DNA of 64,000 nt, taken from positions 1 through 64,000 of IMG/VR virus record IMGVR_UViG_3300030117_004272. One strand, given 5' to 3'. A model generated the notes under the pieces. That model had not been told where the DNA came from, did no database searches, and was given only the letters and a program-made list of their open reading frames with translations. The position numbers and the translations under genes were made by a program. Positions 4,970-47,963 of the stretch are shown piece by piece. The stretch comes from a virus. How positions within the stretch are numbered: position 1 is the stretch's first letter; every line of letters starts with the position of its first letter.

Positions 4970-4996
4970 ACTTGAAATCTAGTAGTTATAAAGGTA

Positions 4997-6590: not shown

Positions 6591-6644
6591 GTTTAATTTT
6601 TTCTAGACATAATTACCTAAAAGGATTATTAAAAGATCCTCGCT

Positions 6645-9051: not shown

Positions 9052-9081
9052 GAAAATAAGAAAATAAGACAATAAGAAAAA

Positions 9082-9720: not shown

Positions 9721-9721
9721 C

Positions 9722-9958
9722 ATGTCAGAAGATAAAGTAGAAAGAATTATTGAAGACGAGCAGAGTATTTTTCAAGGGGAGTTAACTCAACTTGAAGGTA
9801 TTTTAGCTGAAATTGACGAAAAGATTGATGCTTTAAAAGTACAGAAAAAGAAAATGCAGACATTATCTAATGTATTTAACTCTGCACTTGAAGGCATCCA
9901 ACACGATCTTAAACAAGTAGAGCTTGGTCTGGAAGAATCCTCACAACATTCCGATTAA
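9722..9958 (+). CDS. Small acidic coiled-coil protein
   Basis: 78 aa with a heptad pattern. Confidence 0.6.
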   Translation: MSEDKVERIIEDEQSIFQGELTQLEGILAEIDEKIDALKVQKKKMQTLSNVFNSALEGIQHDLKQVELGLEESSQHSD

Positions 9959-10092
9959 GCATTTAAAAATTTTACGTAGTCATACGTAAAAACAGGGGCT
10001 CCGTTTCAGTGAGTTCCTTCATAGTATGAGAGGGATCGCCTACTCCTGTTCGTGGGGGACAGGGGTAGGCACTCTCATGAAAAATACCTCTT

Positions 10093-14024: not shown

Positions 14025-14302
14025 CCAGACAAGAAATAGAAAATTTTATTGAAAAGACTATATCAACAGCATCTGTAATATTAGCAGATGATTTAGATGA
14101 AGCTTTTGTAGGTATTGATGTAGAACATGGGCCACCTAGAGCTGTTTATTCTATAGAAAAATGTATAAACTTGTTAGCCCAAGATATGTCTACCGTTGAA
14201 GCCGATGAATACTTTTGGCACAACGTAGCAGGGGCATTAGGAGAGGGGCTACCTATTTACATATCGACTCCTGAAGAAGAAGAGGAAAGTCCTTACGACT
14301 AA
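14021..14302 (+). CDS. Conserved phage hypothetical protein (paralog of 5568..5831)
   Basis: ADDLDEAFVG...AVYSIEKCI...EYFWHNVAGA..GE..PI. Confidence 0.7.
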   Translation: MTRQEIENFIEKTISTASVILADDLDEAFVGIDVEHGPPRAVYSIEKCINLLAQDMSTVEADEYFWHNVAGALGEGLPIYISTPEEEEESPYD

Positions 14303-14303
14303 A

Positions 14304-14834
14304 TTATTTATAACTAAATGGATTATTAAGCTTATCCATTTCTGTGTGGTATCCCGCTGCCTTGTAAGTAAACCCGTGATCATCTTGTTCCCCTCTTTTT
14401 TTAAACTGAGCTACTTGGAAAAATTTAGTCGTAGGCAACCATCCTACAATCCAGACAAACATTAAGTCTTTCCTGACTCTGGTAAAAAAATAAACATCGT
14501 TATCAGGGATTTTCTTAGAGGACCCATTAACAGAAACAGAGTATTCGGGTTTCGGGATGGACCCACAAGTTTTAGACTTAACCTCTATTCGTTTATGTCG
14601 ATGTTCTAAATCATGAGTAAAAACATAATTGCCTACATAGACACTTTTTTTAATAAATTTATTAACGACTATCTCTCCTAAACAACCAGTCATACGGCCC
14701 ATGCCTTGAGTAAATGAATTAGGAAGAACTCCCATTTCAGTAGCCCTTGTATGCGCGAGAGATATATCATCACTAGAGGGGGTGTAGACTGCGAAGGGAC
14801 CGCTTTCTTTAAAACCTTGTTTTCTTACACTCAA
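14304..14834 (-). CDS. Putative PD-(D/E)xK-fold nuclease
   Basis: GCLGE...HDL...IEVKSK restriction-endonuclease-like motif. Confidence 0.55.
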   Translation of the reverse strand: MSVRKQGFKESGPFAVYTPSSDDISLAHTRATEMGVLPNSFTQGMGRMTGCLGEIVVNKFIKKSVYVGNYVFTHDLEHRHKRIEVKSKTCGSIPKPEYSVSVNGSSKKIPDNDVYFFTRVRKDLMFVWIVGWLPTTKFFQVAQFKKRGEQDDHGFTYKAAGYHTEMDKLNNPFSYK

Positions 14835-14838
14835 ATTT

Positions 14839-15135
14839 TCAAGTTGCTCGTTTCAAAAATAACTCCCAAGCAGGAAAAAATATTTCTTCCATACAGCGTA
14901 CAACAGCTTCTTGGTCGTAGTTCTCAAGCCACCCTACTCCACTTATGAGTAGACTAGCTTCCATCATTTCGTGACGAATAGTATTTAATAGGACTTTACC
15001 TTTTAAATTTTTATTTATTTCGATAGTTTTTTTATCGTGTAAATACAATCCGAAGTCAGGACTGTCCCCATTAAAAGGAACTAGCTCAAGTTTTACCCTC
15101 TGCCCTGCAATCGATATTGTTTTAGGCAGTTGCAC
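14839..15135 (-). CDS. Small zincin-like protein (HExxE variant)
   Basis: FGLY...IEINK...TIRHEMMEA...QEAVV. Confidence 0.55.
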   Translation of the reverse strand: MQLPKTISIAGQRVKLELVPFNGDSPDFGLYLHDKKTIEINKNLKGKVLLNTIRHEMMEASLLISGVGWLENYDQEAVVRCMEEIFFPAWELFLKRAT

Positions 15136-15136
15136 A

Positions 15137-15691
15137 TTACCACCTTTCTGAGAGTTCTTTGTAGAGTTCTATCCCCGCAGCCATTGCAGTAGCCATACCC
15201 TCCATATTTTTTAAAGCGAGCTCCCAATCCTCCTCATTACTACCAAAAAACGGTTCTGCGATAGTCGCAGGACAGTGCGTTAATCTTAAAAACCCTGCTC
15301 CTCTACTGCCTTTCTTGCGGGGTTTGATCCCTCTACTCCTTAACTGAGGGAAACAATCCTCAAAAGAATCCCGTAAAGATCTAGCGAACAACCTGCCTTT
15401 CTCTGAAGTATTCCAGTACAACCACTCATGCCCTGTCGCTGATGGAGTAGCAGCGTTAAAATGAAGTTCAATCGCTGCTTCAACAGCATCATGTTTTAAA
15501 GCTCTAGCGAGCCATTTCATAGAACTCCAATAACTATTACCTTTGTAGGTAGAATAAATTTTATGTGGAGTCTTCAACCTGTCGCTGATCATATCAGCTA
15601 ATTGGGAGTTGTAGTCCCATTCAGTGACTCCAGTTACGGAAGCGGCACCTGAATCATTTGGTCTGCTGTGTCCCACGCATATTGCTATCAT
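15137..15691 (-). CDS. Endolysin, N-acetylmuramoyl-L-alanine amidase (Amidase_3)
   Basis: CVGHS, TEWDYN, IELHFNA, GHE, FLR, IAEPFFGSN: the zinc amidase motifs. Confidence 0.92.
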   Translation of the reverse strand: MIAICVGHSRPNDSGAASVTGVTEWDYNSQLADMISDRLKTPHKIYSTYKGNSYWSSMKWLARALKHDAVEAAIELHFNAATPSATGHEWLYWNTSEKGRLFARSLRDSFEDCFPQLRSRGIKPRKKGSRGAGFLRLTHCPATIAEPFFGSNEEDWELALKNMEGMATAMAAGIELYKELSERW

Positions 15692-15923
15692 CTCCTATTA
15701 TTATAGCACGTCTGTAGGAATAATCACTGTGAAACTTCTGCCCACGACCCATGAGGTTGCCTTCTTTGAAAGGATAGTCATACCCTTTTATAAGGGTAAT
15801 TGTAGCAGGATCATAAAGATTGCTTTCGTTCAAACTGGAGTCTCCTGCTAAGTCTTTCAAGGCGCAGCTTGGCAGCAGGAGAACCATCAGCAGCAAGGCG
15901 GTCAGCTTCATCTTCAAGATCAT
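15654..15923 (-). CDS. Lipoprotein, putative o-spanin (Rz1-like)
   Basis: Signal peptide and lipobox MKLTALLLMVLLLPS-C; overlaps the upstream ORF and the endolysin. Confidence 0.55.
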   Translation of the reverse strand: MILKMKLTALLLMVLLLPSCALKDLAGDSSLNESNLYDPATITLIKGYDYPFKEGNLMGRGQKFHSDYSYRRAIIIGDDSNMRGTQQTK

Positions 15924-16002
15924 AAATATGTTTTCTATGCTTATACTTAGTATACGCAGCGTATGAACTCAAAGCTGCTTTTATTATTTTTATGAAGGTC
16001 AC
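15811..16002 (-). CDS. Small lysis-cassette protein, possible i-spanin (Rz-like)
   Basis: Helical; overlaps the lipoprotein gene out of frame as in Rz/Rz1 pairs. The transmembrane segment is weak. Confidence 0.35.
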   Translation of the reverse strand: MTFIKIIKAALSSYAAYTKYKHRKHIYDLEDEADRLAADGSPAAKLRLERLSRRLQFERKQSL

Positions 16003-16097
16003 TTTTTAGTCTTCTTATAAGCGTCCTTTAAAAGTTTCTTTTTAGCAGTTGGCTTTTTAGAAGCCTTCTTTTTTTTGCCGTAAGATTTCCCGTACAT
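15999..16097 (-). CDS. 32-aa very basic mini-protein
   Basis: Hand translation MYGKSYGKKKKASKKPTAKKKLLKDAYKKTKK; start and stop overlap both neighbours. Confidence 0.5.
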   Translation of the reverse strand: MYGKSYGKKKKASKKPTAKKKLLKDAYKKTKK

Positions 16098-16261
16098 TAT
16101 TTCTTTTTAGATAAAATTGACCATATAACACCCACGAGAGTGACTGCTGCTGATACACCAGTCGTAACCTCACTATCTGTTGCTATACCATTCTGAGTCA
16201 TGAATCCTCCACCGAAAGTAAGGATATGACGTATGATTCCTAAGATTGATTCTTTATTCAT
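16097..16261 (-). CDS. Putative holin (54 aa)
   Basis: Hand translation MNKESILGIIRHILTFGGGFMTQNGIATDSEVTTGVSAAVTLVGVIWSILSKKK; two hydrophobic segments, basic tail, upstream of the endolysin. Confidence 0.7.
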   Translation of the reverse strand: MNKESILGIIRHILTFGGGFMTQNGIATDSEVTTGVSAAVTLVGVIWSILSKKK

Positions 16262-16431
16262 TTTTTCTTTTTTATTAAATTATATAACGTAATTATAGCT
16301 ACTGTGATACCTAAAAGGCCACCAATGACTTGAATAACCCATTGGATAAATTCAGCATAAGGTATAGTAACAGCTATAAGTGAACCTGTTACACCTGTAA
16401 CTCCTTTAGTTATTATCTCACTGTTACTCAT
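16258..16431 (-). CDS. Small membrane protein, holin/antiholin-like (57 aa)
   Basis: Hand translation MSNSEIITKGVTGVTGSLIAVTIPYAEFIQWVIQVIGGLLGITVAIITLYNLIKKKK. Confidence 0.6.
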   Translation of the reverse strand: MSNSEIITKGVTGVTGSLIAVTIPYAEFIQWVIQVIGGLLGITVAIITLYNLIKKKK

Positions 16432-36789: not shown

Positions 36790-37275
36790 TTAATATCCCC
36801 ATGTGTCACGAACTAGATGTTCTACTTGGCGGGTTCTTCGTCGGCCATCTGCATGGTACACCGTTACATACCTTTTACCGTTATGTAACTTCTCACTAAG
36901 TAGATACCGCTGACCTGCTCGTGAGCCTCTCTTAGGGGGGTCAATACAGTAAACAGCCCCGTAGCTCGTAACAGCGTAACGAGGGAACTCTTCTATTGGT
37001 CGAGCTTGCAGTTTGGTCAGAACATCTTCTCGACTGAACTCTAGCTCCTTGTCTCCGAATATCTGGCGGGTGAGTTTTTCAGAATCTACAGTGTAGTTCT
37101 TACCGTCGTTCCCTCTAAGTTGGGTATACCACTTACCTGAACGGAAATTCATAGCGAGTTTCTTAGGCCCACGATATACGAATCCGCATTCATCAACTTC
37201 GTATTTTAAGGCTTGTGGTATTCTTTTACGTTTTAGTTTTATGTCTGTTATTTTGTACTTGGTTTGTGCTTCCAT
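36790..37275 (-). CDS. NUMOD4-like DNA-binding protein lacking an HNH domain
   Basis: Two repeats resembling NUMOD4 (IP...YEVDECGFVY; IEEFPRYAVTSYGAVY...YVTV...RTRQVEHLV). Confidence 0.55.
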   Translation of the reverse strand: MEAQTKYKITDIKLKRKRIPQALKYEVDECGFVYRGPKKLAMNFRSGKWYTQLRGNDGKNYTVDSEKLTRQIFGDKELEFSREDVLTKLQARPIEEFPRYAVTSYGAVYCIDPPKRGSRAGQRYLLSEKLHNGKRYVTVYHADGRRRTRQVEHLVRDTWGY

Positions 37276-37851: not shown

Positions 37852-38469
37852 ACCCCTTTATATCGAGCGATAGATATTTAGTCAAATTTTTTCTTATACA
37901 CACATATATACGGGGCGGCTCGCAAAAAAAAACATCGGGGGTGGGGGGTGGCGTGGCGGTCAATTAGCTATGATCTATTGATAGTTAATCATTGTTTACT
38001 TTCCAGATTTGCTGATAATGGCACATTGTGAATTGCTAAACTCTGTTTAAAGTTTGGTGTTGCCATTGATCTGCTCAACTGAATAATGAACAATTCACGA
38101 TTATCAATTAACAACTAAGTTGTTATAATTACCATAATTATCTATACTCACTACAATATCCTCATAATGGCCCATAAATGGCTCATATGGCGTTACAAGC
38201 TGATATGGGGGTAATATACCTTATTTCATTTACGACGATATAACACTTTTCAAAAATTCTTGGAAAGTTGTTAGGATATTTTGTTGTTCTGCTAGTCTAA
38301 TTTTTAGATCCTTATGATGATTTATAGAAGATCATCATTATTTTCAATGTTCTCATAACTCATTAACCATTAACAACTTACAACTAACAACTAAATTGTT
38401 ATGATTAATTATGAAAAATAATGAAACATTTGCTTGTGTTATTTCATTTTTTAACTTATTGGTTAAGTG

Positions 38470-39060
38470 ATGTAGGGGAAAAATTACCCTAGCTCAGTGA
38501 CAGTGAGAATTTTGATTTTTGACAGTATAGCCCGCTTAGGGGTGACCAACTAAGATCGACTGATAGCGAATAAAGTATTTTAGCAGTAAAAGCCTTGTTA
38601 ACAGTTTTAAGAAAATTACAGAGCGGAATCTGTGGGGAGCAGTTTAAAATCCGTAAAGGATAAACGTCCAATCCGTTTACTCTGAGGCATAGCTTAAAAA
38701 ATGGTAGTTAACACAAATATGAATTTAGGAGTAATATCGAGCCGCCAAAAAATTGCGCGCTGCAACCAGTTTAAATTACTAGCACCTGTTGAATGCCTTA
38801 AGTAGGATTGAACATTTTAGAGGGTGCAAAAAAAGCGAATACGATTTAGCAAATCTTTTCGTCCCTATGTATTCACGCAGACCAGACCGATTTTTCGGAT
38901 GTACCTTAATCACGTTTCAAAGTTATTTAGCTCATATGATTATTTTATATTGGTTTTAAATTATGGCTAACCAAGCAATTTAAAATTACAACTGGTCTCA
39001 ACGGATTGAAGCATACTAAGGTATCACGGTTCATATTTATGAGGTATGAGCTTGGCAATT
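38470..39060 (+). ncRNA. Candidate large structured non-coding RNA
   Basis: No credible ORF; many local and long-range complementary segments (see findings). Confidence 0.4.
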
Positions 39061-39197
39061 ATCCATTGCACTATTGGCAAGAATACCGCCAATAGTGCAA
39101 TGGTCTGAGTTTTAACAACTAAGTTGTTAAGATTCTGACCATTGAAAACAATGGAAAAAACCTAACAATAAAACATTAAAAAATAGAAAGAAATAAA

Positions 39198-39737
39198 ATG
39201 GCTAAAAAAGCAAATAAGAAGAATGCAATCGAATTAACTGCAGATCAAAAGACAGTTCTAGAAAATGTTACAACTGAGTTGTTAACAGTGAGGGATGCCT
39301 TCATTGAGGCAGTTTATAAAGCGACTCTGACACTTAAAGAGGTACTAGTCGAAAAGATTGAGGTAATGGAGAAAGCAAAAATTCCTAGTCCTGTAATCTA
39401 TAAAACTATCCAAGACATTACTAAACCATTGGTTAAAAATGGTAATACTTCACAACAGAATATATCTAAGATCCTCACAAGTAGAGGTCATAAGATGAAA
39501 ACAACTAGAAAGGACGCAGGTATTACTAAGACTCTTAACAAGGTATCTGTCGGATATATCAAAATAGCTGAAGCTACAACTAAAGCAGTTCTTGTTAACA
39601 AGAAAAAAGCAGATAAAGAAAAGAAGCCTGTGACTGCAGAGCAGATTGCGAAGTTGTTCAAAGCTGCATCTACCGATGAACAAGCCAAAGCTGTCGATCT
39701 TATAAATGAGATTGTCACAGAATTAGATAAGAGTTAA
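39198..39737 (+). CDS. First early gene, basic hypothetical protein
   Basis: 179 aa; its stop lies inside a palindrome and it has an internal palindrome copy. Confidence 0.75.
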   Translation: MAKKANKKNAIELTADQKTVLENVTTELLTVRDAFIEAVYKATLTLKEVLVEKIEVMEKAKIPSPVIYKTIQDITKPLVKNGNTSQQNISKILTSRGHKMKTTRKDAGITKTLNKVSVGYIKIAEATTKAVLVNKKKADKEKKPVTAEQIAKLFKAASTDEQAKAVDLINEIVTELDKS

Positions 39738-39907
39738 CAACTGAGTTGTTAACTTATCACTTATCAAGTGAGTATTGAACATTGCACCATTGTCAACTAA
39801 TCCTTGGCAATGGTGCATCCTTCAATTCTTAATTGAACATCTTAACAACTGAGTTGTTAACAATAATAATAATAATAATAAGAAGTAAATAACAAATAAT
39901 AAAACAT

Positions 39908-40093
39908 ATGAAAACAGATATGCTTAAAAGATATGTAGAAAATGAAGAGGTTTTCTATAATAGAAAAATTGATATCGAATACACTAAAGAAACTGAACTG
40001 GAATTTGAAATAGTAGCTCTTGAAGAAAAACTAAAAAAAGCACGAGCAAAAATCAGAATGCAGAACAAAATCATTGAAGCTCTTACAAAATAA
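39908..40093 (+). CDS. Early hypothetical protein (coiled coil)
   Basis: Bracketed by palindromes; A-rich leader. Confidence 0.65.
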   Translation: MKTDMLKRYVENEEVFYNRKIDIEYTKETELEFEIVALEEKLKKARAKIRMQNKIIEALTK

Positions 40094-40162
40094 AAGCTGA
40101 GTTGTTAACAACTGAGTTGTTAAATTAATAACAAATAAAAACAATAAACATAAAATAGCAAT

Positions 40163-40342
40163 ATGAGAGATAAGAAAAAAGCATGGGATACTCTAAGAGA
40201 ATTAGGGATAAGTGAGGAGACCTTACAAATTGTTACGAGTATAAACGGATATACTTTTGAGACAATGGAGAGCATTCTATATGCAGCTTTGGGGTATGAG
40301 TCTTTTGATCAGATTATCAGATGGACTGGGGTAAAGGCATAG
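40163..40342 (+). CDS. Early hypothetical protein (59 aa)
   Basis: Hand translation MRDKKKAWDTLRELGISEETLQIVTSINGYTFETMESILYAALGYESFDQIIRWTGVKA; bracketed by palindromes. Confidence 0.7.
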   Translation: MRDKKKAWDTLRELGISEETLQIVTSINGYTFETMESILYAALGYESFDQIIRWTGVKA

Positions 40343-40422
40343 ATCTAAAATTTCAATCCTTAACAACTGAGTTGTTAACAACTGAGTTGTTAAATTAATA
40401 ACAAATAAACCAAGAAAATAAA

Positions 40423-40758
40423 ATGACTATATTCGCTATATCAATAGCTATAATAATCTGCATAGGCTTACCAGTAGCTGAGGCAATTATTGCAAACAAA
40501 CAACTGAGTAGGAGGGAAGCCGACTACCAGCTTTTAAGAAAGCACTACACCGAAAAGTTTTTCCGTCTTGAAGAGTTGGAAGAACTACACGATTCCATGA
40601 CCAGAGCTAGGGATCTATGGGAAGATAAATATAGAAAGCTAAAAGTGGACTATAAAATATTGAAGGCGGAAAAGGTAAGGGCTGAATTGGAAGCAATCAA
40701 AGAAGTGTGTACTCCTATATATGAGGACATAGCAGAATGGGAATCTAAAAAACTTTAA
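40423..40758 (+). CDS. Early membrane-anchored coiled-coil protein
   Basis: N-terminal hydrophobic helix; stop inside a palindrome. Confidence 0.7.
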   Translation: MTIFAISIAIIICIGLPVAEAIIANKQLSRREADYQLLRKHYTEKFFRLEELEELHDSMTRARDLWEDKYRKLKVDYKILKAEKVRAELEAIKEVCTPIYEDIAEWESKKL

Positions 40759-40824
40759 CAACTGAGTTGTTAACAACTGAGTTGTTAACTTATTAATATA
40801 CAAACAAGAAAGGAATAAAATAAA

Positions 40825-41319
40825 ATGAGTGAACTAGAACACTTAGAATTGTGGACACGTCCACAGAATTATATCGGAGAAACATGGGAGGATCATTACG
40901 TATTCTTGTCACAGATTAGAGACAGTGATGCATTGCAACGATCCAACTTCACCAAAGGATTGGAGGCGATAGGCGGTGAAGATCCTGAGATGGTGATCGT
41001 TACGAGTGCGAGTCATTGGGCTTGTGGGTGGATAGAGACTATCTACATACATAAAGATGCTCATGATGCTTTGAGAAAAGCGAATGAGATTATGGGTGAA
41101 CTAAAAGATTACCCTATCATAGATGAAGAACACTTCTGTGAGCTTGAAGAGTCTGAGGCTCAAGAGGCGTGGAAGAACTACTACTCTCCAAAAGAAAGGG
41201 TCGAGTTCTATCGGAAGCATTGGCACTACTCCTGTGGACTCATGTCATTCAAAGAGTTACTCCACAGTGTGAGGACTGGGGATATATTCTACGGCTACGC
41301 AGGGGACATACTTAATTAA
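40825..41319 (+). CDS. Early hypothetical protein
   Basis: AAAGGA leader; SNF...HWACGWIE...DYPIIDE; stop inside a palindrome. Confidence 0.75.
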   Translation: MSELEHLELWTRPQNYIGETWEDHYVFLSQIRDSDALQRSNFTKGLEAIGGEDPEMVIVTSASHWACGWIETIYIHKDAHDALRKANEIMGELKDYPIIDEEHFCELEESEAQEAWKNYYSPKERVEFYRKHWHYSCGLMSFKELLHSVRTGDIFYGYAGDILN

Positions 41320-41366
41320 CAACTGAGTTGTTAACTTATTAACATACAAACAAGAAAGGAATACCA

Positions 41367-41552
41367 ATGGATACAAACGTAACCACCAGACCATCTAACT
41401 CAGGAGAGAAGGCCCAGAAAACTATAGACAAAGCATCAGCCGATGAATGGGAGTCATGGAAGTCGGAAAAGAATGACCCGAACAATGAACACCGAACAAC
41501 TAGCGTTGGAATTAATAACATGGGCCTCGCCTTTGCACTAATTAACAACTGA
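41367..41552 (+). CDS. Early hypothetical protein
   Basis: AAAGGA Shine-Dalgarno; TGA stop at the centre of a palindrome. Confidence 0.5.
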   Translation: MDTNVTTRPSNSGEKAQKTIDKASADEWESWKSEKNDPNNEHRTTSVGINNMGLAFALINN

Positions 41553-41594
41553 GTTGTTAACTTATTAACATACAAACAAGAAAGGAATACCATC

Positions 41595-41795
41595 ATGAGA
41601 ATATCAAAAGATGAATACAATATGCTAGGCAATGGATCACGAGTCTATTGGAGGAATGGATACGGAGAGAAAGACAAAGGAATAGTTTACGATACTTGTT
41701 TCGAGAACAATGAGGTCGAGCTAGTCATATCGTACGAGGGCAAGCGAACACGAGCATGGATAGATATCAATGACCTAATAAAAGTGGTCAGCTAA
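41595..41795 (+). CDS. Early small SH3-like beta protein
   Basis: AAAGGA Shine-Dalgarno; GSRVYW...GIV pattern. Confidence 0.65.
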   Translation: MRISKDEYNMLGNGSRVYWRNGYGEKDKGIVYDTCFENNEVELVISYEGKRTRAWIDINDLIKVVS

Positions 41796-41910
41796 TTTCA
41801 ACACTGGTTGAATTGTTAGGTGAACCATGTGCCATGTGCCATTAACAACTGAGTTGTTAAATGGTGCATGGTGCATGCAACCTTAATTAACTTATAAACA
41901 AAATAGATAA

Positions 41911-42279
41911 ATGAAATACTACTACGTTATAACAACACAATATATGGAAAACTACGGAGCACACTCTGGTAGTGGAAAGTTTTCTGATGGGCAAGCTCAT
42001 TGGAAGTTCAAGGGTGGTGAGCAATACCTCATCTCCACAGAGTCACAGCGGTATGCGGATGCGGTCGCATTCTTGACAGCTTATTTACATGAGAGGAATA
42101 ACAGCGTTCACTCAAAAGAGATCGTGGTCTCATGGGATCATGAGCCATTGGTAAACCCATCCAACGCAAAGGATGAGGGGTACATAGCAATAGACATCGA
42201 GGAGTATTTTAATAACCCCGTGTTTAATGAACTTATAAACAAACCAAGTAATGAAGCCAACATATATAAAAGAAACTAA
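41911..42279 (+). CDS. Early hypothetical protein
   Basis: ITTQYMENYGAH...HWKFKGG conserved-looking phage motif. Confidence 0.75.
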   Translation: MKYYYVITTQYMENYGAHSGSGKFSDGQAHWKFKGGEQYLISTESQRYADAVAFLTAYLHERNNSVHSKEIVVSWDHEPLVNPSNAKDEGYIAIDIEEYFNNPVFNELINKPSNEANIYKRN

Positions 42280-42712
42280 GATAGCCTTGCAACTTGCAAA
42301 GCAATACCATGACGGACAACTACGTGCCGTCGGCACAGATATGGGTAAGCCGTACTTCGACACCCATATCCTACGAGTAACCAATGCGGTGAGCTATAGA
42401 TCCAGAGCTGCAGCAGCACTGCATGATATTCTGGAGGATACAGTCATGTCATCACATGAACTCGCCTATGTAGTAGGACTCAGACAAGACACCATTGATG
42501 CGGTCGATCTACTGACGCAAGGGGAGGATGAAAGTTATCACAACTACATCATGAGGATTCACAGTGCAGAAGGTGAGGCAGGTAACATCGCAAGAGAAGT
42601 GAAGATCGCTGACCTGATGGATAACTTCTCAACCTTTCCAGAGGGGCAGCTTGTACCTAAATACTTAGCAGCCTTACACATATTAACCGAACCATACAGA
42701 ACAAAACTTTAA
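42251..42712 (+). CDS. Stand-alone HD-domain RelA/SpoT-type hydrolase (small alarmone hydrolase-like)
   Basis: A...H.GQ.R...G.PY..H...V, AAALHDILEDT, LLT, VKIADLMDN. Confidence 0.8.
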   Translation: MKPTYIKETKIALQLAKQYHDGQLRAVGTDMGKPYFDTHILRVTNAVSYRSRAAAALHDILEDTVMSSHELAYVVGLRQDTIDAVDLLTQGEDESYHNYIMRIHSAEGEAGNIAREVKIADLMDNFSTFPEGQLVPKYLAALHILTEPYRTKL

Positions 42713-42756
42713 CAACTGAGTTGTTAACTTATTAACATACAAACTAAATAATACCT

Positions 42757-43002
42757 ATGATAAAAAATAAATTACACCATTGGATCACTCTACGAGAGGG
42801 TGATGGATACGGAGTCTTCGATGTAGATTGGAGACTCGATACTATAGATGAGAAGGGCGAGACAGTTGAGGCTGTTTACGTGGACGGATGGAGCTGTGAT
42901 TCCTACAAAGAAGCTGAACAAATATTCTACAGCTTTATCAAGAATCATCCAGACTCATCACATGAGAACGAAATAACAGGAGTAAAGAAGATCAGAGTTT
43001 AA
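42757..43002 (+). CDS. Early hypothetical protein
   Basis: Bracketed by palindromes. Confidence 0.65.
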   Translation: MIKNKLHHWITLREGDGYGVFDVDWRLDTIDEKGETVEAVYVDGWSCDSYKEAEQIFYSFIKNHPDSSHENEITGVKKIRV

Positions 43003-43052
43003 CAACTGAGTTGTTAAGCTGAATATAAAATAACAAACTAATAAAATAAAAA

Positions 43053-43559
43053 ATGAAAGTAGAAGTAACAACAGATATCTTCAATGAAGATACATTTAAA
43101 TTAATAGCAGAATACAAATTCGAAAAGTGCGGAGGCTCTTGGAGTAATACAGTACCAGAGGAGGAACTTGAAAAAATTCCTCACTCATTCGTAGAAAAGG
43201 TAGGAGGATTCTTACCACCATCAAATGGGTTTCATGTATTTGATTCCTACGAATCGCCAAGAGCACCTTACTGGTCATCATTCCTTTGGAGAGTGGTGAG
43301 GGTAGGGGACAGTGAATATACTGTACATCAGTTCGAACCAATCAAGAAGTTTTACAGGGTCTCTGTAGTGGTTGAAGACTCCGTATTGGTTGAAGCTGAA
43401 TCAGAGGAGGAAGCTAAAGAAATCGTGGAAGGTTATAGCCCTTCTGATCTTGCAGATGAACTCGGTCTTGATGACATCGAAGTAACTGATGCAGAAATTG
43501 ATGCGGATGGTGACGATCTGGATGCTATAAAATCATTTAACAAATCATTTAACAACTGA
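43053..43559 (+). CDS. Early acidic hypothetical protein
   Basis: C-terminal VEAESEEEAKEIV motif common in small phage proteins; TGA stop inside a palindrome. Confidence 0.7.
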   Translation: MKVEVTTDIFNEDTFKLIAEYKFEKCGGSWSNTVPEEELEKIPHSFVEKVGGFLPPSNGFHVFDSYESPRAPYWSSFLWRVVRVGDSEYTVHQFEPIKKFYRVSVVVEDSVLVEAESEEEAKEIVEGYSPSDLADELGLDDIEVTDAEIDADGDDLDAIKSFNKSFNN

Positions 43560-43599
43560 GTTGTTAACTAAAACATAAACATATAAAAGAAAATAATAC

Positions 43600-43627
43600 T
43601 TGCATTATTCTAATAATCTATTATAAT
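43600..43627 (+). promoter_or_regulatory. Sigma70-like promoter
   Basis: TTGCAT-16 nt-TATAAT upstream of 43657. Confidence 0.55.
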
Positions 43628-43656
43628 GTACAATAACAAACTAAATAAACTAAATA

Positions 43657-44604
43657 ATGAATACAATAAACCAATACAACGATAAAGAAATCAAAGCAGG
43701 TCTTGCTAAAAGTGAGATCCTTACAGTCTTGAATAATACTGTCCAAGTCACTTGGGCAGGTAGTAAACCGACAGGCTTTAGTGCTACCCTTAAAGGTAAG
43801 ACTAAAGAAGTGGTTAAGGACACCAATGCTAAGAAGGGCAGAGTAAGAGCTTCAGCTACAGTTCTTGAGACTCGTAACAACTCTCTTGGCAAGATGCTTA
43901 GTGTCGTGCAACAGGCTCAGATGAACTATAAGATAGGTACGCATCCAAGCGATGTGCGTGGGGTACGTATTGTATCAACTGACAAGGTTGCTGAGATACA
44001 AGCAATGATTGATGATATGTCAAGACAACTCGATAATCTACGAGTGGAGGCTTTGAGAGAGTGGGATACCATACGTGCTGAATCAATCGAAGGCTTGGGC
44101 GATAACATCCACGAGGTCAACGTACCTCACAATGGCGAGGAGTTCTTAGGAGAATTCAAGATCGCTGTATCATGGTCGGCTGCACCGATGGCAATCAAGA
44201 AGGGTACTATCTTCGATGGTATGACAGAGGAAGTAGCTAACAAAGTGATTGCTCAATCTGAGAAGACACGCATCGATGTGATGGCAAGGAACCATTCTAA
44301 AGTATTGGAACCTGCTATGAAGAAACTTAAAGAAGCTATTAAGAAAGTGACTAAGGGTGAGCGTCTCCATCAGAAGACATTCGATGAATTGAAAGAAGCC
44401 TCTGCAGAGTTGAAGGAATTGAACTGGTTCGAGTTCGATGTCATCAATGATATTGTCAGGGATCTTCAAGAGGTCGGCAGCATCCAACGTGATCACTTAG
44501 GTAAGACAGGATCAGCGACAAGAAAGCTCGCTGCTACTGCAATCGAGGATGTGTACAACCAAGCAGAACGCACAGCTAGTAGGCTTGCTATCTGTGGACT
44601 CTAA
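43657..44604 (+). CDS. DUF3150-like helical protein associated with an AAA-vWA pair
   Basis: Size, helical character and typical position upstream of AAA and vWA genes. Confidence 0.5.
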   Translation: MNTINQYNDKEIKAGLAKSEILTVLNNTVQVTWAGSKPTGFSATLKGKTKEVVKDTNAKKGRVRASATVLETRNNSLGKMLSVVQQAQMNYKIGTHPSDVRGVRIVSTDKVAEIQAMIDDMSRQLDNLRVEALREWDTIRAESIEGLGDNIHEVNVPHNGEEFLGEFKIAVSWSAAPMAIKKGTIFDGMTEEVANKVIAQSEKTRIDVMARNHSKVLEPAMKKLKEAIKKVTKGERLHQKTFDELKEASAELKELNWFEFDVINDIVRDLQEVGSIQRDHLGKTGSATRKLAATAIEDVYNQAERTASRLAICGL

Positions 44605-44659
44605 TCTTAACAACTCAGTTGTTAACTAAACCATTAACTAAAAAACTAAATAAAATACA

Positions 44660-45835
44660 ATGAATACCGAAACACCAGAAATCAAATTCAGCGACGTACA
44701 AACACAAGCTGAGATCGTATACTCATCAGGAGACTCAGTAATGATTCTCTTGGGATCAGGAGGTACAGGCAAGACAGCTCTTGCCAATGCCTCAGTAACT
44801 AAGGCTATCGCTAAACTCTACGGAGTTACCGATGAAACTGTAAAGGTGTACAAGTGTAACTACACTGGTGCATCACCTCTTGAGATCACAGGTTATGGGG
44901 TCTTGAAGAAGGGTGCGAATGGTGAGGATCTCATGTCATTCTCAGAGCCAGAGGGTATACCGACGGCAGCACTTCTTGAGAGACTTGGCATGGAAGATAC
45001 TCCTTGCTTGCTAGTCTTCGATGAGATGCCAGAGTGGGCAGCCGATACAAGATCGTTGGTACGTAGTACTATCGATCCAGATGGTGAGTCTAAGATCGGC
45101 TCGCATAGGCTTGGCGAGAATGTCAAGATACTCGTGACAGGTAACCGACGTGAGGATGGATCACGCTCTGCAGTACTGGATGCCCCGATAGTGAATCGTG
45201 GTAATCAGTTTATATTAAAAGCAGATATCAACTCATGGTTGAGTTGGGCATCTGAGTTTGCGTGGAGTAAGTTCTCACCAGTCGTTGAGTACCTACAGTT
45301 CAACGCTAAGTTGGAGAATGGTAACCGCTTCGCTCCATCTATCCCACAGCCTTGGGATGGATCACCGCATCCAACTCCGAGATCATGGGCGAGTGCTGCT
45401 AAACAGATCAGCTATATTGAGAACAACCTTGAGCTTAGTAAGTCTGAGTTCAACAAGCATCTCAAGCTGACACTGCAATCTAAGGTCGGTGACACTACAG
45501 CTCGTGATTGTATCGCATACATCAACAGCTCAACAGGTCTGCTCGATGACCTTGATGCTGTACGTAAAGGCGACATGGACTTATCAGACAAACCTACTGA
45601 TCAGTTCAAGATGATCCACGCTGCACTACGGATCATGGACTATGAGCTAACTGACCTTGAGAGTCGAGGCAGGGACAGAGGAACGGCTGTGTCTGCAGGT
45701 GATGTAGATTGGTTCGTTGATAGATTCCTACTACCCGCTACTAAGGAGATTGCGAGAGCAGGATATCATGCAGCGATCAACGTAGGCATCCCATTGAAAG
45801 AGCATCCTAAGAATGCAGAACTGAAAGGACTTTAA
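44660..45835 (+). CDS. MoxR-like AAA+ ATPase
   Basis: Walker A GSGGTGKT, Walker B LLVFDE, sensor TGNR, NR finger, PTPRSW. Confidence 0.85.
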   Translation: MNTETPEIKFSDVQTQAEIVYSSGDSVMILLGSGGTGKTALANASVTKAIAKLYGVTDETVKVYKCNYTGASPLEITGYGVLKKGANGEDLMSFSEPEGIPTAALLERLGMEDTPCLLVFDEMPEWAADTRSLVRSTIDPDGESKIGSHRLGENVKILVTGNRREDGSRSAVLDAPIVNRGNQFILKADINSWLSWASEFAWSKFSPVVEYLQFNAKLENGNRFAPSIPQPWDGSPHPTPRSWASAAKQISYIENNLELSKSEFNKHLKLTLQSKVGDTTARDCIAYINSSTGLLDDLDAVRKGDMDLSDKPTDQFKMIHAALRIMDYELTDLESRGRDRGTAVSAGDVDWFVDRFLLPATKEIARAGYHAAINVGIPLKEHPKNAELKGL

Positions 45836-45879
45836 CAACTGAGTTGTTAACTAAACCATTAACTAAAAAATAGAATACT

Positions 45880-47421
45880 ATGATACCAAATATAGAAGAC
45901 ATACAAGAAGGCGATCCGATTGTGTTTGATCACTACGGAGATAGCACACTAGCCAAAGCATTTCGTAGGCTAGAGACAACTGAAGAGTTATACCCTTACT
46001 ACAGTGCCTTGACACTACTCAAATGGGTATGGACATATCAGACTCCATATGGACAGACGGATGGTAGATACCTACGGCTCAATCCGTATGGTGTATTAGA
46101 TAAGATAGAACAGACCAGTGATCCAGTTGGATTCCTTGCATTCCTACTAGCTCACGAATCAGGTCATGTGATGTTGGGTATATCCAGACTCTTCAAGTTG
46201 ATGGGTACTATACCAGAAGATGATGCCCCCGCTCATGTGCTGAATGAGTTCATGAAGCGTAAGCGTCTAGTCAACATCGCTGCTGACCATGCAGATAATC
46301 TACTCATACTCAAACAGAATGCGAAGCTGTTACCGATGATCGAAGGGTCATGCTGTGACATCCGATTCGATAACATGAGTACGGAGAATATTGTCATCGA
46401 GCTTGCTAAAGACGAGAACAATGGACAATCTAAAATGGACGATGAGCAGGGAGCAGAGGACGATGATCAACAGGATGGTGAGCAGGATGGTGATGATCCA
46501 CAGTCATCCGATGGTGGTGACGAGCCATGCGATGAGGATGCTGACACTAATCAAGATACAAGTGAATCAGATAGTGATGGCGATAGCACTGACGATGGCG
46601 ATGGTGACGGAGATCAAGAGGGTGATGCTACAGGAGGCACACCTAAACCAACCGACAAAGAAATCTTAGGTGATGATTGGGTCGGGCAGGGTGCTGATGA
46701 TTTACCTGACGAGCCACACCTTGAGGAGGGTGAGACACTTGAGGAGGTGCTTGAGGAGATTGACCAGATCTCAGATCAGGTGATCAAGCAAGCTGAGTTT
46801 GCATCAACATCAAGTGACATGGGCTTGAGTGACACCATGAGAAGTGTCAAGGATCAGAAGTCGCAGCGGTCATACATGGATTGGAAAAAGTATGTCATGG
46901 AATGGAACACCGCTCGTGTTGCAGATGGATGGACACGACCATTCAACGCACCGATCTTCAACGCAACCAATGGGCTATGCACTGCAGGTCGTGGTCGTGA
47001 TGGTTGCGGTACAATCGTCTACGTCATCGACAGTAGTTGGTCGATGGATGAACAACTGACATCTGATCTATTGATCCTTGCACAAGAGTTCCTCGATAAT
47101 ATGAGACCTGAGAAGATGGTCATCCTATCTGTATCCTCTCAGGTGCGAGACGTGTATGAGTTATACTCAGGTGATCAAGCTCCAACTAAAATCAAAGTCG
47201 GTGGTGGTACAAGATTCCATCCCGCATTCGAGTGGGTCAAAGAGAACGAACCATTCTGTGATGGGTTAGTGTACTTAACTGATGGTTATAGTAATGATCT
47301 AAGGAACTTACAAGAGCAGCCTTATCCAGTGCTGTGGGTATCATACGGATTAGAATCTAAACACTACACAATCGGTGAGGCAATCGATGCTGCGCCAAGC
47401 AACGCAGGTATCGCTGCATAA
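45880..47421 (+). CDS. Metallopeptidase-vWA protein (DUF2201-like)
   Basis: TDG, LAHESGH (HExxH), NIAAD, acidic linker, MIDAS DSSWS, GGGT, LTDG. Confidence 0.85.
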   Translation: MIPNIEDIQEGDPIVFDHYGDSTLAKAFRRLETTEELYPYYSALTLLKWVWTYQTPYGQTDGRYLRLNPYGVLDKIEQTSDPVGFLAFLLAHESGHVMLGISRLFKLMGTIPEDDAPAHVLNEFMKRKRLVNIAADHADNLLILKQNAKLLPMIEGSCCDIRFDNMSTENIVIELAKDENNGQSKMDDEQGAEDDDQQDGEQDGDDPQSSDGGDEPCDEDADTNQDTSESDSDGDSTDDGDGDGDQEGDATGGTPKPTDKEILGDDWVGQGADDLPDEPHLEEGETLEEVLEEIDQISDQVIKQAEFASTSSDMGLSDTMRSVKDQKSQRSYMDWKKYVMEWNTARVADGWTRPFNAPIFNATNGLCTAGRGRDGCGTIVYVIDSSWSMDEQLTSDLLILAQEFLDNMRPEKMVILSVSSQVRDVYELYSGDQAPTKIKVGGGTRFHPAFEWVKENEPFCDGLVYLTDGYSNDLRNLQEQPYPVLWVSYGLESKHYTIGEAIDAAPSNAGIAA

Positions 47422-47447: not shown

Positions 47448-47963
47448 ATGAAAAAACTAATACAACAATACATACAACAAAGTGAAGTTGATAATTTAGT
47501 TAGACAACACCTTGATGCCTACGATAATGGTGACGAGTATTATGTTAAACTATTCTGCGCTTCAGAAAGACATCTCGTTGAATACAAAGTGAGAGAGTGG
47601 GTTAAGGACATAGTGGACAGTCAGAAAATATATACTAACGATAAGTATCAAGTCGCTGTTACTGATGATCCCTCATCGGATGTCATCCACCTCTCAATCA
47701 AGAGGCATGATCGTGGAGTCATGAAAGACTGGCGAGACTTTCAAGAGATCAAGAATCAGTTAGTCGGAGAGGAGAACGAGGGCGTTGAACTATACCCTGC
47801 AGAGAGTCGGTTAGTAGATTCTGCAAACCAGTATCACATATGGGTTGTCAGAGATCCGTCTTTCAAATTCAACTTTGGGTATAAGGAAAGATATGTCACC
47901 GACAAACCTTTCGGTAATGCTAAACAAAGAACAATTAAAACCAAAAACATAAAAACAAAATAA
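47448..47963 (+). CDS. Conserved phage hypothetical protein
   Basis: HLSIKRHD...WRDFQEIKNQLVGEE.E.VELYPAESRLVD.AN.YH.W. Confidence 0.75.
   Translation: MKKLIQQYIQQSEVDNLVRQHLDAYDNGDEYYVKLFCASERHLVEYKVREWVKDIVDSQKIYTNDKYQVAVTDDPSSDVIHLSIKRHDRGVMKDWRDFQEIKNQLVGEENEGVELYPAESRLVDSANQYHIWVVRDPSFKFNFGYKERYVTDKPFGNAKQRTIKTKNIKTK

Follow-up and report, generated by a model that had tools for sequence, protein, structure and literature searches.

Introduction

PeSLs, the promoter-early stem-loops of T4-type phages (Arbiol et al. 2010, PMC2839356; Comeau et al. 2014, PMC4122927), are short repeated regulatory motifs between the small, mostly orphan early genes of hyperplastic regions. Each begins at the stop codon of one gene and extends as far as the ribosome site and start of the gene that follows, indels and replacements between close relatives end at the motifs, and the proposed route is motif–motif recombination, small circles included. 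The element that we describe here is similar in all these respects. However, a PeSL has a strong sigma70-like promoter, a G/C-rich terminating stem-loop and sequence-variable copies, whereas the present element is a perfect dyad of 19 bp, A/T-rich and invariant, whose hairpin is weak and which lacks a consistent promoter. It also has two allelic forms, uniform per genome, that switch in place, and its phage is unrelated to T4.

The stoperators of Cluster A mycobacteriophages (Mavrich & Hatfull 2019, PMC6550527; PMC9283540) are likewise 20–30 near-identical short sites at gene boundaries, some in promoters and most not, with a lineage-specific consensus that evolves along with the binding protein. 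In contrast to the present site, a dyad limited to 7.7 kb of early genes whose binder is a candidate only, they are 13-bp, asymmetric and transcription-oriented, lie genome-wide in temperate phages and are bound by a monomeric immunity repressor; the phage studied here is probably lytic because no integrase was found.

Two further systems share some traits with the locus. Integron arrays consist of promoterless single ORFs, each followed by a palindromic site that sometimes contains the stop codon; their content and order vary, and they show a site-insert-site pattern. Their attC sites are imperfect palindromes of 57–141 bp whose recognised form is a folded single strand bearing extrahelical bases. 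New cassettes enter integrons at attI, beside a promoter, whereas variation here extends all along the array, and an IntI-type recombinase was not found. The early RNase III sites of T7 are hairpins between early cistrons, and one stem of about 25 bp or more is kept at the RNA level here too (41826–41877, plus a 68-nt insert in relatives). Most copies, however, consist of a single 8-bp stem, a length well below what RNase III requires, and the T7 sites differ from one another and are not perfect dyads.

We analysed a window of 64,000 nt (positions 1–64,000 of IMG/VR virus record IMGVR_UViG_3300030117_004272) and its relatives. The palindromes act as signals at gene boundaries and, in addition, turn the region into a cassette array that can be shuffled; the element is best read as resembling T4 PeSLs and stoperators rather than integrons.

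Results

A palindrome marks the early gene boundaries

The palindrome TTAACAACTnAGTTGTTAA occurs in 16 perfect and 4 degenerate copies, confined to 38108–45850 of the 76-kb record, where none are expected by chance; a whole-record search confirmed the copies and the range given in the preliminary description. Exact matches to TTAACAACTNAGTTGTTAA number 16, all within 39112–45850, and 100 dinucleotide-preserving shuffles gave 0. Allowing up to 3 mismatches yields 20 matches (0.09 expected), with no further copies across the entire 76,396-bp record. The degenerate copies lie at 38108 (1 mismatch), 38384 (3), 39267 (2; within the first early gene) and 40090 (3; overlapping 40105), and the copy at 38384 is better described as a member of the half-site cluster at 38370–38402. 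The centre base on the + strand is G in 14 of the 16 exact copies, A at 39112 and C at 44607. The outermost base pair is the least constrained, most one-mismatch copies in relatives differing at position 1 or 19 alone.

Almost every early gene is followed by a single copy or a tandem pair (Table 1), and in three pairs the units share a TTAA overlap (40090/40105, 40360/40375 and 40755/40770). The next start codon lies 29–50 nt from the palindrome, behind one of a small set of reusable A-rich leaders. Nine genes had been said to take their stop codon from the palindrome, and the ORF ends agree: the TAA at palindrome positions 2–4 stops the genes ending at 39737, 40093 (degenerate copy), 40758, 41319, 42712, 43002 and 45835, and the central TGA stops those at 41552 and 43559. 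A search for a host with repeated copies came up empty: among 185,579 prokaryote genomes the 19-mer has 3 occurrences, one per genome, and is repeated in none. On these sequences, the palindrome is not a host site.

Table 1. Features of the palindrome array (positions in the window)
Feature	Position	Strand	Remark
Palindrome, 1 mismatch, centre A	38108..38126	.	Heads control region; overlaps sigma70-like hexamers
Isolated half-site CCTAACAACT, read on - strand	38266..38275	-	Conserved in six type-1 genomes; CCTAACAAGT repeats in type-2 genome
Half-site cluster	38370..38402	+	Last part is degenerate copy at 38384
16-bp perfect hairpin	39063..39103	+	Immediately upstream of palindrome 39112
Perfect palindrome, centre A	39112..39130	.	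First early gene starts 67 nt on
g4, first early gene, 179 aa, basic, all-helical	39198..39737	+	Candidate type-specific factor
17/19 palindrome copy within g4	39267..39285	.	Translated VTTELL
Perfect palindrome	39734..39752	.	g4 stop is the palindrome's TAA
Hairpin with G:U pairs on sense strand	39781..39818	+	Flanked by two palindromes
Perfect palindrome	39842..39860	.	Left edge of two-gene deletion in relatives and other samples
Tandem pair, first unit degenerate	40090..40123	.	Degenerate unit is stop of 61-aa gene
Tandem pair, TTAA in common, 15-bp period	40360..40393	.	
Tandem pair	40755..40788	.	First unit is stop of 111-aa gene; pair RNA fold -16.3 kcal/mol
Perfect palindrome	41316..41334	.	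Stop of 164-aa gene; then shared leader CTTATTAACATACAAAC...
Perfect palindrome	41542..41560	.	Central TGA is stop of 61-aa gene
Long sense-strand hairpin, tip is palindrome 41842-41860	41826..41877	+	68-nt insert exactly here in three relatives
Perfect palindrome	42709..42727	.	Stop of HD-phosphohydrolase-like gene
Perfect palindrome	42999..43017	.	Stop of 81-aa gene; left edge of 168-aa gene deletion/replacement
Perfect palindrome	43549..43567	.	Central TGA is stop of 168-aa gene
Promoter-like TTGCAT-N16-TATAAT ahead of 315-aa gene	43600..43627	+	Read from sequence; kept in relatives; absent from promoter scan list
Perfect palindrome, centre C	44607..44625	.	
Last palindrome	45832..45850	.	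Stop of ATPase gene; type-2 form here in close relative
Variable cassette genes, 10 small ORFs	39908..43559	+	Palindromes bounding each
Three conserved early genes (315 aa; ATPase, 391 aa; 513 aa)	43657..47421	+	Palindromes between them too

Relatives keep the site and shuffle the genes

The same element is present in fifteen related marine contigs, and the 14 non-redundant related genomes and fragments that we counted hold 127 perfect copies in flanking sequence of 50–90% identity. At the conserved junctions that were scored (6–13 genomes per junction), all copies found have perfect 7-nt arms, a count that selects on the arms, the contig I copy after the 315-aa gene being degenerate; the 30 nt on each side are 49–93% identical. 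The site stays perfect, and fixed relative to stop and start codons, even where the 315-aa gene is only 72% identical.

The gene content of the interval that separates the first early gene from the 315-aa gene varies from genome to genome (maps of 9–16 genomes with the same flanking genes), the relatives all being metagenome assemblies in which the long-range linkage of cassettes could be partly chimeric; independent assemblies gave the same maps for A and J and for D and N. Two gene pairs are seen in both orders (g55|g54 versus g54|g55, and g11,g12 versus g12|g11), and a 68-nt non-coding insert has a palindrome on each side where other genomes carry a single one. Contigs from other marine and estuary samples skip from 39839 to 40358, from 41862 to 42233 and from 42998 to 43569. 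The variation is dispersed along the whole length of the array, and the overall order is roughly colinear.

We scored 207 unique endpoints as homology breakpoints, which are not independent of one another. Within 5 nt of a palindrome lie 91 of the 207, versus 9% expected, and the palindrome together with the leader behind it contains 159 (77%), versus 24% expected (p about 1e-57, on these non-independent endpoints); 55 fall at the end of a shared leader rather than in the site. The comparison of gene order and breakpoints among relatives, named beforehand as the test on which the cassette-like architecture could fail, favours it: genes are gained, lost, replaced and reordered, with breakpoints at the palindrome or leader.

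Two site types switch in place

A second, 18-bp form, TTAACAAGCTCTTGTTAA (type 2), takes the place of type 1 at orthologous junctions. At least two allelic types thus exist, and nearly all copies within one genome are of one type. The two have a 7-bp lower stem in common and differ in the closing pair and loop; their half-site spacing differs by 1 bp, and the differences are near the dyad centre only. The type has been switched in place between genomes, since genomes with 97–99% identical flanks differ in the palindrome centre only. At three junctions of B (type 1) and M (type 2), with at least 40 nt identical on both sides, the differences are restricted to the palindrome centre plus no more than about 10 nt of adjoining sequence; the same holds for G and A at the junction behind the ATPase gene. 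The edges of the conversion patches are ragged over about 10 nt, which is what homologous exchange would give.

The centre is also oriented. On the coding strand, perfect copies read CTGAG 85 times versus CTCAG 20 times, and GCTC 20 times versus GAGC 0 times; the flipped loop occurs in about 19% of type-1 copies and is the sole form seen after one gene. A symmetric dimer on duplex DNA does not require such a bias.

A candidate factor heads the array

The array begins with g4 in all nine type-1 genomes having a known left end, and the only type-2 genome with a known left end begins with g66, a 26%-identical g4 homologue (hhalign probability 93%, E 2.6e-7). The other shared genes of this genome are 81–97% identical to the window's in nucleotides. 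The link from g4 and g66 to site type comes from this single type-2 genome, itself a hybrid. Half-sites in the control region show the discriminating base of their own genome, CCTAACAACT in six type-1 genomes and CCTAACAAGT, three times, in the type-2 genome. We found no DNA-binding fold or family for g4, which has no Pfam or PHROG hit and whose AlphaFold model (all-helical, pLDDT 73.6) has no meaningful Foldseek or VIA-align match; HTH_3 was not found across the whole record.

Discussion

A proposed boundary element that doubles as a crossover point

Our preferred explanation, to which we give somewhat less than an even chance, is that the palindrome is a type-specific boundary element for a phage factor and doubles as a crossover point for homologous exchange. 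It would belong, as a conserved element, to the early operon of an uncultured marine phage with a lytic life style, and the host polymerase would probably transcribe this operon. A phage-encoded early factor, for which the g4 product (diverged homologue g66) is the candidate, would read the site sequence-specifically, most likely binding double-stranded DNA as a dimer and blocking or limiting early transcription at each boundary in a stoperator-like manner. The repressor road-block with a cognate protein, one of several readings first offered, finds support in the two allelic site types and in the divergence of the first-gene homologue. Against this reading, the type differences fall where a hairpin loop would lie, not where dimers usually read bases.

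Because the same site and shared leaders recur at all junctions, the junctions would also be the place of homologous recombination, between genomes and between junctions and probably through small circles too, by which single genes would be exchanged, deleted, inserted and reordered. A cassette array could then arise without a dedicated integrase. Gene replacement is seen downstream of the 513-aa gene too, in palindrome-free DNA, which counts against this explanation.

A possible hairpin in the early transcript

Unlikely, but a serious contender, is a site that acts in the early transcript, as a short hairpin (7–8 bp stem, 3–4 nt loop) just past the stop codon. A phage-specific RNA-binding protein or endoribonuclease would recognise it, or host RNase III where the stem is long, and the polycistronic early RNA would be cut into messages of one gene each whose 3′ ends are protected, or the site would tune how the following gene is translated; shuffling would be a by-product, as in our preferred explanation. 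The punctuation-like placement, after each ORF and before each leader, fits such a hairpin, as does the strong coding-strand orientation bias of the centre, and the closing pair and loop, by which the types differ, are the parts of a hairpin from which its binding proteins take their specificity. Around 41842 the + strand folds far better than the - strand (-35.8 versus -24.9 kcal/mol; -76.4 versus -45.6 kcal/mol with the 68-nt insert), and 14 one-sided changes in six genomes always retain pairing via G:U on the + strand. At this junction the palindrome is the tip of a stem kept at the RNA level, which counts against reading at the DNA level. One copy in a relative also carries a compensatory double change, TTAACCACTAAGTGGTTAA.

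However, the lone site folds at a weak -5 kcal/mol and without a T-run, and the conserved feature seems to be its sequence rather than hairpin stability. The flanks offer no sense-strand advantage, 129 palindrome windows averaging +1.1 kcal/mol toward the - strand versus +2.7 toward the + strand for coding controls. Copies with one internal mismatch favour neither strand (G:T on the + strand in 3, on the - strand in 2), and G:U or compensatory variety is nearly absent among the copies of one genome. A flipped loop in so many type-1 copies, exclusive after one gene, also speaks against a transcript hairpin, and neither type-matching half-sites nor a copy located at the presumed early promoter or above it would make sense for one. 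The RNase III-like hairpin of the preliminary description holds at three junctions only, those whose palindrome is part of a long stem on the sense strand or adjoins one.

Less likely readings: recombinase site, transcription signal or nuclease target

It is improbable that the palindromes are true site-specific recombination sites, at which an unrecognised phage or host recombinase captures circular single-gene cassettes as integrons do. The ORF-then-site layout is that of a cassette, and the 19-bp site is the only homology flanking the 68-nt element, which is arranged as site-insert-site. The site contains stops in two frames and terminates many ORFs, and as read from the sequence the leader supplies a third-frame stop at some junctions, which would suit a universal junction; tandem sites have TTAA in common. 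Yet Pfam models for tyrosine recombinases, serine recombinases and the Y1 HUH transposase matched nothing in the whole record while positive controls were detected, and no integrase or resolvase was found. Variation all along a roughly colinear array instead of one-end addition, breakpoints at shared-leader ends outside the site, ragged conversion edges, and a site that also separates the three conserved genes and is kept at orthologous junctions all argue against such an enzyme. The integron analogy that was first drawn is not supported, for these reasons and because the site is a 19-bp perfect dyad and not attC.

Very improbable is a usual transcription signal, be it a PeSL-type stem-loop with promoter, an intrinsic terminator, an attenuator, or a hairpin promoter of the N4 kind that serves an injected polymerase. 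N4 early promoters are hairpins similar to the 8-bp stem with 3-nt loop seen here, tandem pairs fold at -16 kcal/mol, and in one leader class the left arm TTAACA is followed 18 nt on by TAACAT or TAATAT, a sigma70-like 9/12 match at five sites. However, a suitably spaced -10 is missing from other leader classes, and promoter-like matches in the region are no commoner than in shuffles (52 versus 41 ± 8). Only 1 of 16 sites passes the terminator scan and 0 of 16 have a T-run; a perfect dyad is also without direction. We found no T7-like or N4-like RNA polymerase, and the 3099-aa virion protein has no credible DxDxD motif, its single match lying in an acidic low-complexity stretch.

Least probable of all is a site whose main role is to be cut by a type-specific phage endonuclease when co-infecting relatives compete, with cleavage and repair from the other genome converting sites and dragging neighbouring genes (homing or marker exclusion): entire site sets are switched between 97–99% identical genomes, hybrid genomes exist and an HNH endonuclease gene (36790–37275) adjoins the control region, but the window and the type-2 hybrid share about 91% identity in the HNH region, which therefore does not track type, and a mere target would be lost, whereas the site stays perfect at fixed positions.

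A repeated palindrome at early gene junctions

The early genes of this phage are arrayed between copies of a 19-bp perfect palindrome, TTAACAACTNAGTTGTTAA, present in 16 exact copies where shuffled sequences give none, and in 20 copies, against 0.09 expected, when up to three mismatches are allowed. Small genes form a rightward block of 12.4 kb behind a 1.9-kb non-coding control region; the palindromes span the opening 7.7 kb of this block, and no copy with up to three mismatches occurs elsewhere in the 76,396-bp record. Of the 16 exact copies, read on the plus strand, 14 are centred on G, one on A and one on C. According to the ORF table, nine genes stop inside a palindrome copy, seven of them at a TAA in site positions 2-4 and two at the central TGA. 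These counts, far beyond chance, bear out the preliminary description, which had reported some 20 copies confined to this region (four of them degenerate), nine site-supplied stop codons and a variable centre. At most junctions 29-50 nt separate the site from the next start codon, and these leaders fall into a few reused classes, for example those beginning with CTTATTAACATACAAAC and ATTAATAACAAATAAA. Three palindrome pairs share an overlapping TTAA.

An exact 19-mer search of IMG/VR returned eight contigs, and a profile of the conserved 315-aa protein encoded downstream of the variable genes added seven further marine metagenome loci. Across the 14 non-redundant related genomes or fragments counted there are 127 perfect copies; most imperfect copies deviate at the outermost base alone. 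A genome has 16-18 palindromes, and the two site types sit at orthologous junctions. At five conserved junctions, each represented by 6-13 genomes, the 7-nt arms are perfect in all copies found (a count that selects on the arms) and the 30-nt flanks on either side are just 49-93% identical; perfect arms hold even in lineages whose 315-aa gene is just 72-73% identical. One related contig, I, has a degenerate copy after the 315-aa gene. A search of 185,579 prokaryote genomes yielded the 19-mer in three, from unrelated taxa and with a single copy apiece; by our estimate this is about chance level. This scarcity, combined with perfect arms amid diverged flanks, indicates that the site is this phage lineage's own and that either strong constraint or strong homogenisation acts on it. 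A literature search with the site sequences found no paper.

Coordinates of features in the palindrome region and the rest of the record
Position	Feature	Remark
3203-16282	terminase and replication module	first copy
38101-38129	palindrome as classical -35/-10 operator	arrangement true in the window
38108-45850	palindrome array	all 20 copies
38130-39100	~1 kb without credible ORF	between first palindrome and first early gene
38601-38708	conserved segment	94% identical in type-2 hybrid
39063-39103	hairpin	beside a palindrome
39198-39737 (+)	g4	first early gene, 179 aa
39589-39604	perfect 16-bp palindrome TTCTTGTTAACAAGAA	inside g4
39734 with 39842	neighbouring palindromes paired in predicted fold	-54 kcal/mol
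39781-39818	hairpin	beside a palindrome
39839>40358, 41862>42233, 42998>43569	palindrome-to-palindrome skips	contigs of other samples
41826-41877	stem of ~20 bp or longer	absent at other copies
43600-43627	TTGCAT-N16-TATAAT	just behind palindrome 43549, 30 nt before 315-aa gene
47448-47963	variable gene behind 513-aa gene	171 aa
62872-76396	terminase and replication module	second, diverged copy, partly beyond the window
67978-67987	run of 10 N	
L015:7362-7429	68-nt insert	related locus

Single genes are exchanged at palindrome junctions

Early host-takeover regions hold phages' fastest-changing genes of unknown function, and their exchange is understood in few cases. Here, gene and palindrome maps show that genomes more than 90% identical over their shared genes differ in the gene sets between g4 and the 315-aa gene. 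Each variable gene is bounded by palindromes, and one gene can have varying neighbours across genomes. Two gene pairs occur in either order among the mapped contigs (referred to by letter): g55 precedes g54 in A and follows it in B, while g11 precedes g12 in G, D, B and K and follows it in Q and R. The arrays of eight genomes yield 207 unique homology endpoints, which are not independent; for 91 of them a palindrome is no more than 5 nt away (9% expected), and 159, or 77%, fall within palindrome plus leader (24% expected). There is a second endpoint peak 20-50 nt behind the site, where the shared leader runs out at the next start codon. In other samples, contigs jump straight from one palindrome to another at three places. 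Independent assemblies with identical maps (A and J; D and N) argue against assembly artefacts in the local adjacencies; long-range phasing in metagenome contigs is uncertain.

The evidence supports the proposed cassette-like system both in its architecture and as a process of evolution, since relatives gain, lose and reorder genes with breakpoints concentrated in palindrome and leader, and the palindromes very probably play a role in this shuffling. The shuffling would most likely depend on the repeated site and leader as places of homologous exchange, not on an integron-like enzyme. One invariant 19-bp mark sets the units of exchange at single-gene resolution. In A, D and F, a G/C-rich non-coding insert of 68 nt has flanking palindromes, and at its position G, E, B, K, I and M hold one palindrome, with immediate flanks otherwise unchanged; the site-68 nt-site arrangement would fit a possible circle intermediate. 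By locus number, the insert is recorded in L015, L017, L022 and L023, and it has no Rfam match.

The gene behind the conserved 513-aa gene varies as well. Unrelated genes occupy this place in D, K and N and in I, and B, C and M have a 119-121-aa paralogue of the 81-aa cassette gene there; the equivalent place was read in L016, L017, L019, L020 and L027. No palindromes flank this gene, so gene replacement is not limited to palindrome junctions.

Two site types are switched in place

At junctions orthologous to type-1 sites, contig I carries an 18-bp form, TTAACAAGCTCTTGTTAA (type 2), in which the inner C:G pair is G:C and the centre has 2 nt, not 3. M and O are type 2 throughout. I, by contrast, is of hybrid make-up, as two sites towards its right are type 1, and in A just one site, the one following the conserved ATPase gene, is type 2. 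Scans of IMG/VR with the 18-mer or a 16-mer found no further type-2 genomes, and a profile of the 513-aa protein returned the same eight contigs and no others.

Over the 315-aa gene, the ATPase gene and ~10 kb downstream, the type-1 genome B and the type-2 genome M share 97-99% identity. At three junctions of this pair, at least 40 nt are identical on both sides, and the differences comprise the palindrome centre and at most ~10 nt beside it. Identical flanks around a changed centre indicate that sites were converted in place, several per genome, within ~2% divergence. One possible cause is selection for a single type per genome, implying a genome-encoded type-specific reader; another is very frequent conversion among copies. 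Because the patch edges are ragged, short-patch homologous conversion fits better than precise site-specific exchange. The two allelic forms and their switching in place point to a co-evolving pair of site and factor.

A candidate reader heads the array

The array is headed by g4 in nine of nine type-1 genomes with a known left end, and the g4 family is made up of 12 marine clusters, all close relatives with identities of 71% or more. The sole type-2 genome with a left end has g66 (130 aa; L014:8874-9266, minus strand) in this place, a diverged homologue with 26% identity to g4 and a 29-residue deletion (hhalign probability 93%, E 2.6e-7); the rest of that genome's window-shared genes are 81-97% identical in nucleotide sequence. 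In these 9 + 1 genomes, g4/g66 tracks the site type. The two coding sequences each contain partial copies of their own site type, and isolated half-sites in the control region carry their own genome's discriminating base: CCTAACAACT occurs at the same relative place in six type-1 genomes, and CCTAACAAGT occurs three times in the type-2 genome. With one type-2 genome in the comparison, this is suggestive of g4/g66 as a candidate site-type-specific reader.

We found no Pfam or PHROG family for g4, and no known DNA- or RNA-binding fold was detected. Searches with its AlphaFold model brought no meaningful match, the best being E 0.67 in Foldseek and Z 6.9, for generic helices, in VIA-align, and the ESM Atlas returned just viral clusters without names. 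A g4 stretch, SQQNISKIL, which we took to resemble the recognition helix of the 434 repressor, was dropped when no tool backed the likeness. The g4 gene also contains a perfect palindrome of its own, encoding residues VLVNKK, which are conserved in the family; it amounts to two type-2 arms back to back within a type-1 genome and may be due to chance.

Recognition of the site as DNA or RNA

We infer the molecular job of the palindrome, which would be read as a DNA road-block by the g4 product. DNA-level recognition is slightly ahead of RNA-level recognition. We counted in its favour the control-region half-sites, a palindrome copy at the head of the control region, and the invariant arms with near-zero wobble or compensatory variety inside a genome. 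On this reading, a switch of type could also be explained as a way to escape the factor of a co-infecting relative, for which heteroimmune stoperator systems offer a parallel (PMC6550527). As RNA or DNA, a lone palindrome folds at about -5 kcal/mol and has no T-run, and this weak fold makes hairpin stability an unlikely selected trait; tandem pairs fold at -16 kcal/mol.

Recognition at the RNA level, slightly behind, is favoured by a placement that resembles punctuation, by type differences that sit solely in the would-be loop and closing pair, and by a biased orientation of the centre (CTGAG 85 vs CTCAG 20; GCTC 20 vs GAGC 0). It also draws on the long sense-strand stem around 41842, where six genomes show 14 one-sided changes, every one of which preserves sense-strand pairing by means of G:U. 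With or without the 68-nt insert, folding favours this strand over the antisense strand by 11-31 kcal/mol; the insert and its flanking stems form one very long sense-strand hairpin (-76 vs -46 kcal/mol for the other strand, z -10.9). The sense-strand signal is restricted to three junction classes, and the flanks of 129 palindrome windows show no sense-strand advantage. Any two type-1 copies are mutually complementary, and in RNA a copy centred on G would pair with one centred on C into a perfect duplex of 19 bp; predicted folds pair neighbouring palindromes, and such inter-junction pairing could loop out single cistrons.

Transcription signals were also considered. A classical -35/-10 operator describes the first palindrome in the window, but in relatives the site lies 25-45 nt from a conserved promoter-like block, and the operator reading was dropped. 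Promoter-like matches are at background (52 vs 41 +/- 8); TTAACA-N18-TAACAT (9/12) arises from one leader class only, the other classes having no -10 at the right spacing. Before the 315-aa gene, the TTGCAT-N16-TATAAT element is probably a host-type promoter opening a second early transcription unit; its sequence is kept in relatives of both site types, which suggests that the region is transcribed by the host polymerase.

Taken whole, the DNA road-block with g4 as its reader is our best explanation, and a tentative one, possible yet a little short of probable. If the palindrome acted as a transferable boundary at which transcription is halted or processed, and provided stops in two frames, it would be a useful synthetic-biology part and would help explain the modularity of phage accessory genes. 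A broader scheme strikes us as unlikely: the palindrome and the g4/g66 family would be matched in specificity, much as N-nut or repressor-stoperator pairs are, and the same marine populations would contain at least two types; once types had recombined, every site of a genome would be driven to the resident type, and the sites would serve as integration points for circularised single genes. Such a system, if real, would be an integrase-free, phage-borne counterpart of the integron, coupled to an immunity-like type system in a lytic phage.

Relation to known systems

The closest evolutionary analogue is the T4-type PeSL, a class of repeated regulatory motif between an upstream stop codon and a downstream start that mediates modular shuffling and forms mini-circles (PMC2839356; PMC4122927). 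As with PeSLs, indels and replacements between close relatives end at palindrome and leader, and likewise in other samples. PeSLs have a strong sigma70-like early promoter, which the palindromes lack, and their stem-loops, which can terminate or attenuate transcription, are G/C-rich and variable, whereas the palindrome is an invariant dyad with a weak hairpin. Stoperators are the closest functional analogue, sharing many near-identical sites at gene boundaries and a lineage-specific consensus. They are asymmetric, oriented with transcription and genome-wide in temperate phages; the palindrome is a dyad asymmetric at its centre only, and is confined to one region. A stoperator system further includes a sequence-specific repressor of the phage's own, for which g4/g66 would be the candidate here.

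The resemblance to integrons raised in the preliminary description fails on both recombinase and site. An attC site is an imperfect palindrome of 57-141 bp with R and L boxes, and ours is an 18-19-bp perfect dyad; no IntI-type tyrosine recombinase (PF00589) matched in six frames of the record, the positive control matching in 14 of 14 genomes. Serine recombinases, a T7-like polymerase and HTH_3 were likewise not found in six frames. N4-like hairpin promoters are discounted, as the record's 3099-aa protein has no polymerase family, PDB sequence match or credible catalytic DxDxD that would mark a virion RNA polymerase, and PF21769 gave a sub-threshold match alone, in an 81-aa gene. REP/RAYT elements are discounted because the mobilising Y1 HUH transposase (PF01797) is absent from the record. 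As for RNase III processing sites, which call for a double-stranded RNA stem of about 20 bp or more between cistrons, such a stem is present at 41826-41877 and absent at the other copies; hairpins also adjoin palindromes at 39063-39103 and 39781-39818. A scan of 36.5-51 kb against Rfam at E <= 1 gave one chance-level sR30 match (E 0.16) and no other family.

From these comparisons, we therefore file the finding under mobile regulatory cassettes. What is new is a single invariant perfect dyad with site-supplied stops, two genome-uniform allelic types and conversion in place. Beyond the T4 PeSL descriptions, the mark has two allelic forms, and between genomes whose surrounding genes are 97-99% identical every examined mark was switched in place.

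Genome context

Besides a large terminase, the record encodes a 1931-aa protein with a carbohydrate-binding domain and a replication and recombination module (SNF2-like helicase, PD-(D/E)XK nuclease, RuvC-like resolvase, family A DNA polymerase and primase-helicase). No match to the palindrome region came up in blastn against 50,697 phage records, and the relatives found for the DNA polymerase and terminase proteins are just 24-28% identical; accordingly, the phage has neither a known host nor a known cultured relative. It belongs to an abundant, uncultured marine lineage, and its relatives, like the sequencing runs containing it, are marine or estuarine.

The second copy of the terminase and replication module, 13.5 kb long, has 66-70% nucleotide identity to the first, with one 590-bp piece at 86%. 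The 76-kb record may be a scaffold of two related phages or contain a large diverged duplication; relatives reach 58-63 kb at most. The ORF-poor stretch ahead of g4 has no Rfam match, is conserved in parts among relatives, and might serve as an origin or packaging signal or encode a non-coding RNA. Its conserved segment has differing surroundings in the type-2 hybrid, where the equivalent lies downstream of the first gene, not upstream. Where other genomes have one ATPase ORF of 391 aa, L022 (contig 3300030372_003104) has two, of 296 and 86 aa, through a frameshift, a sequencing error or breakage of the gene.
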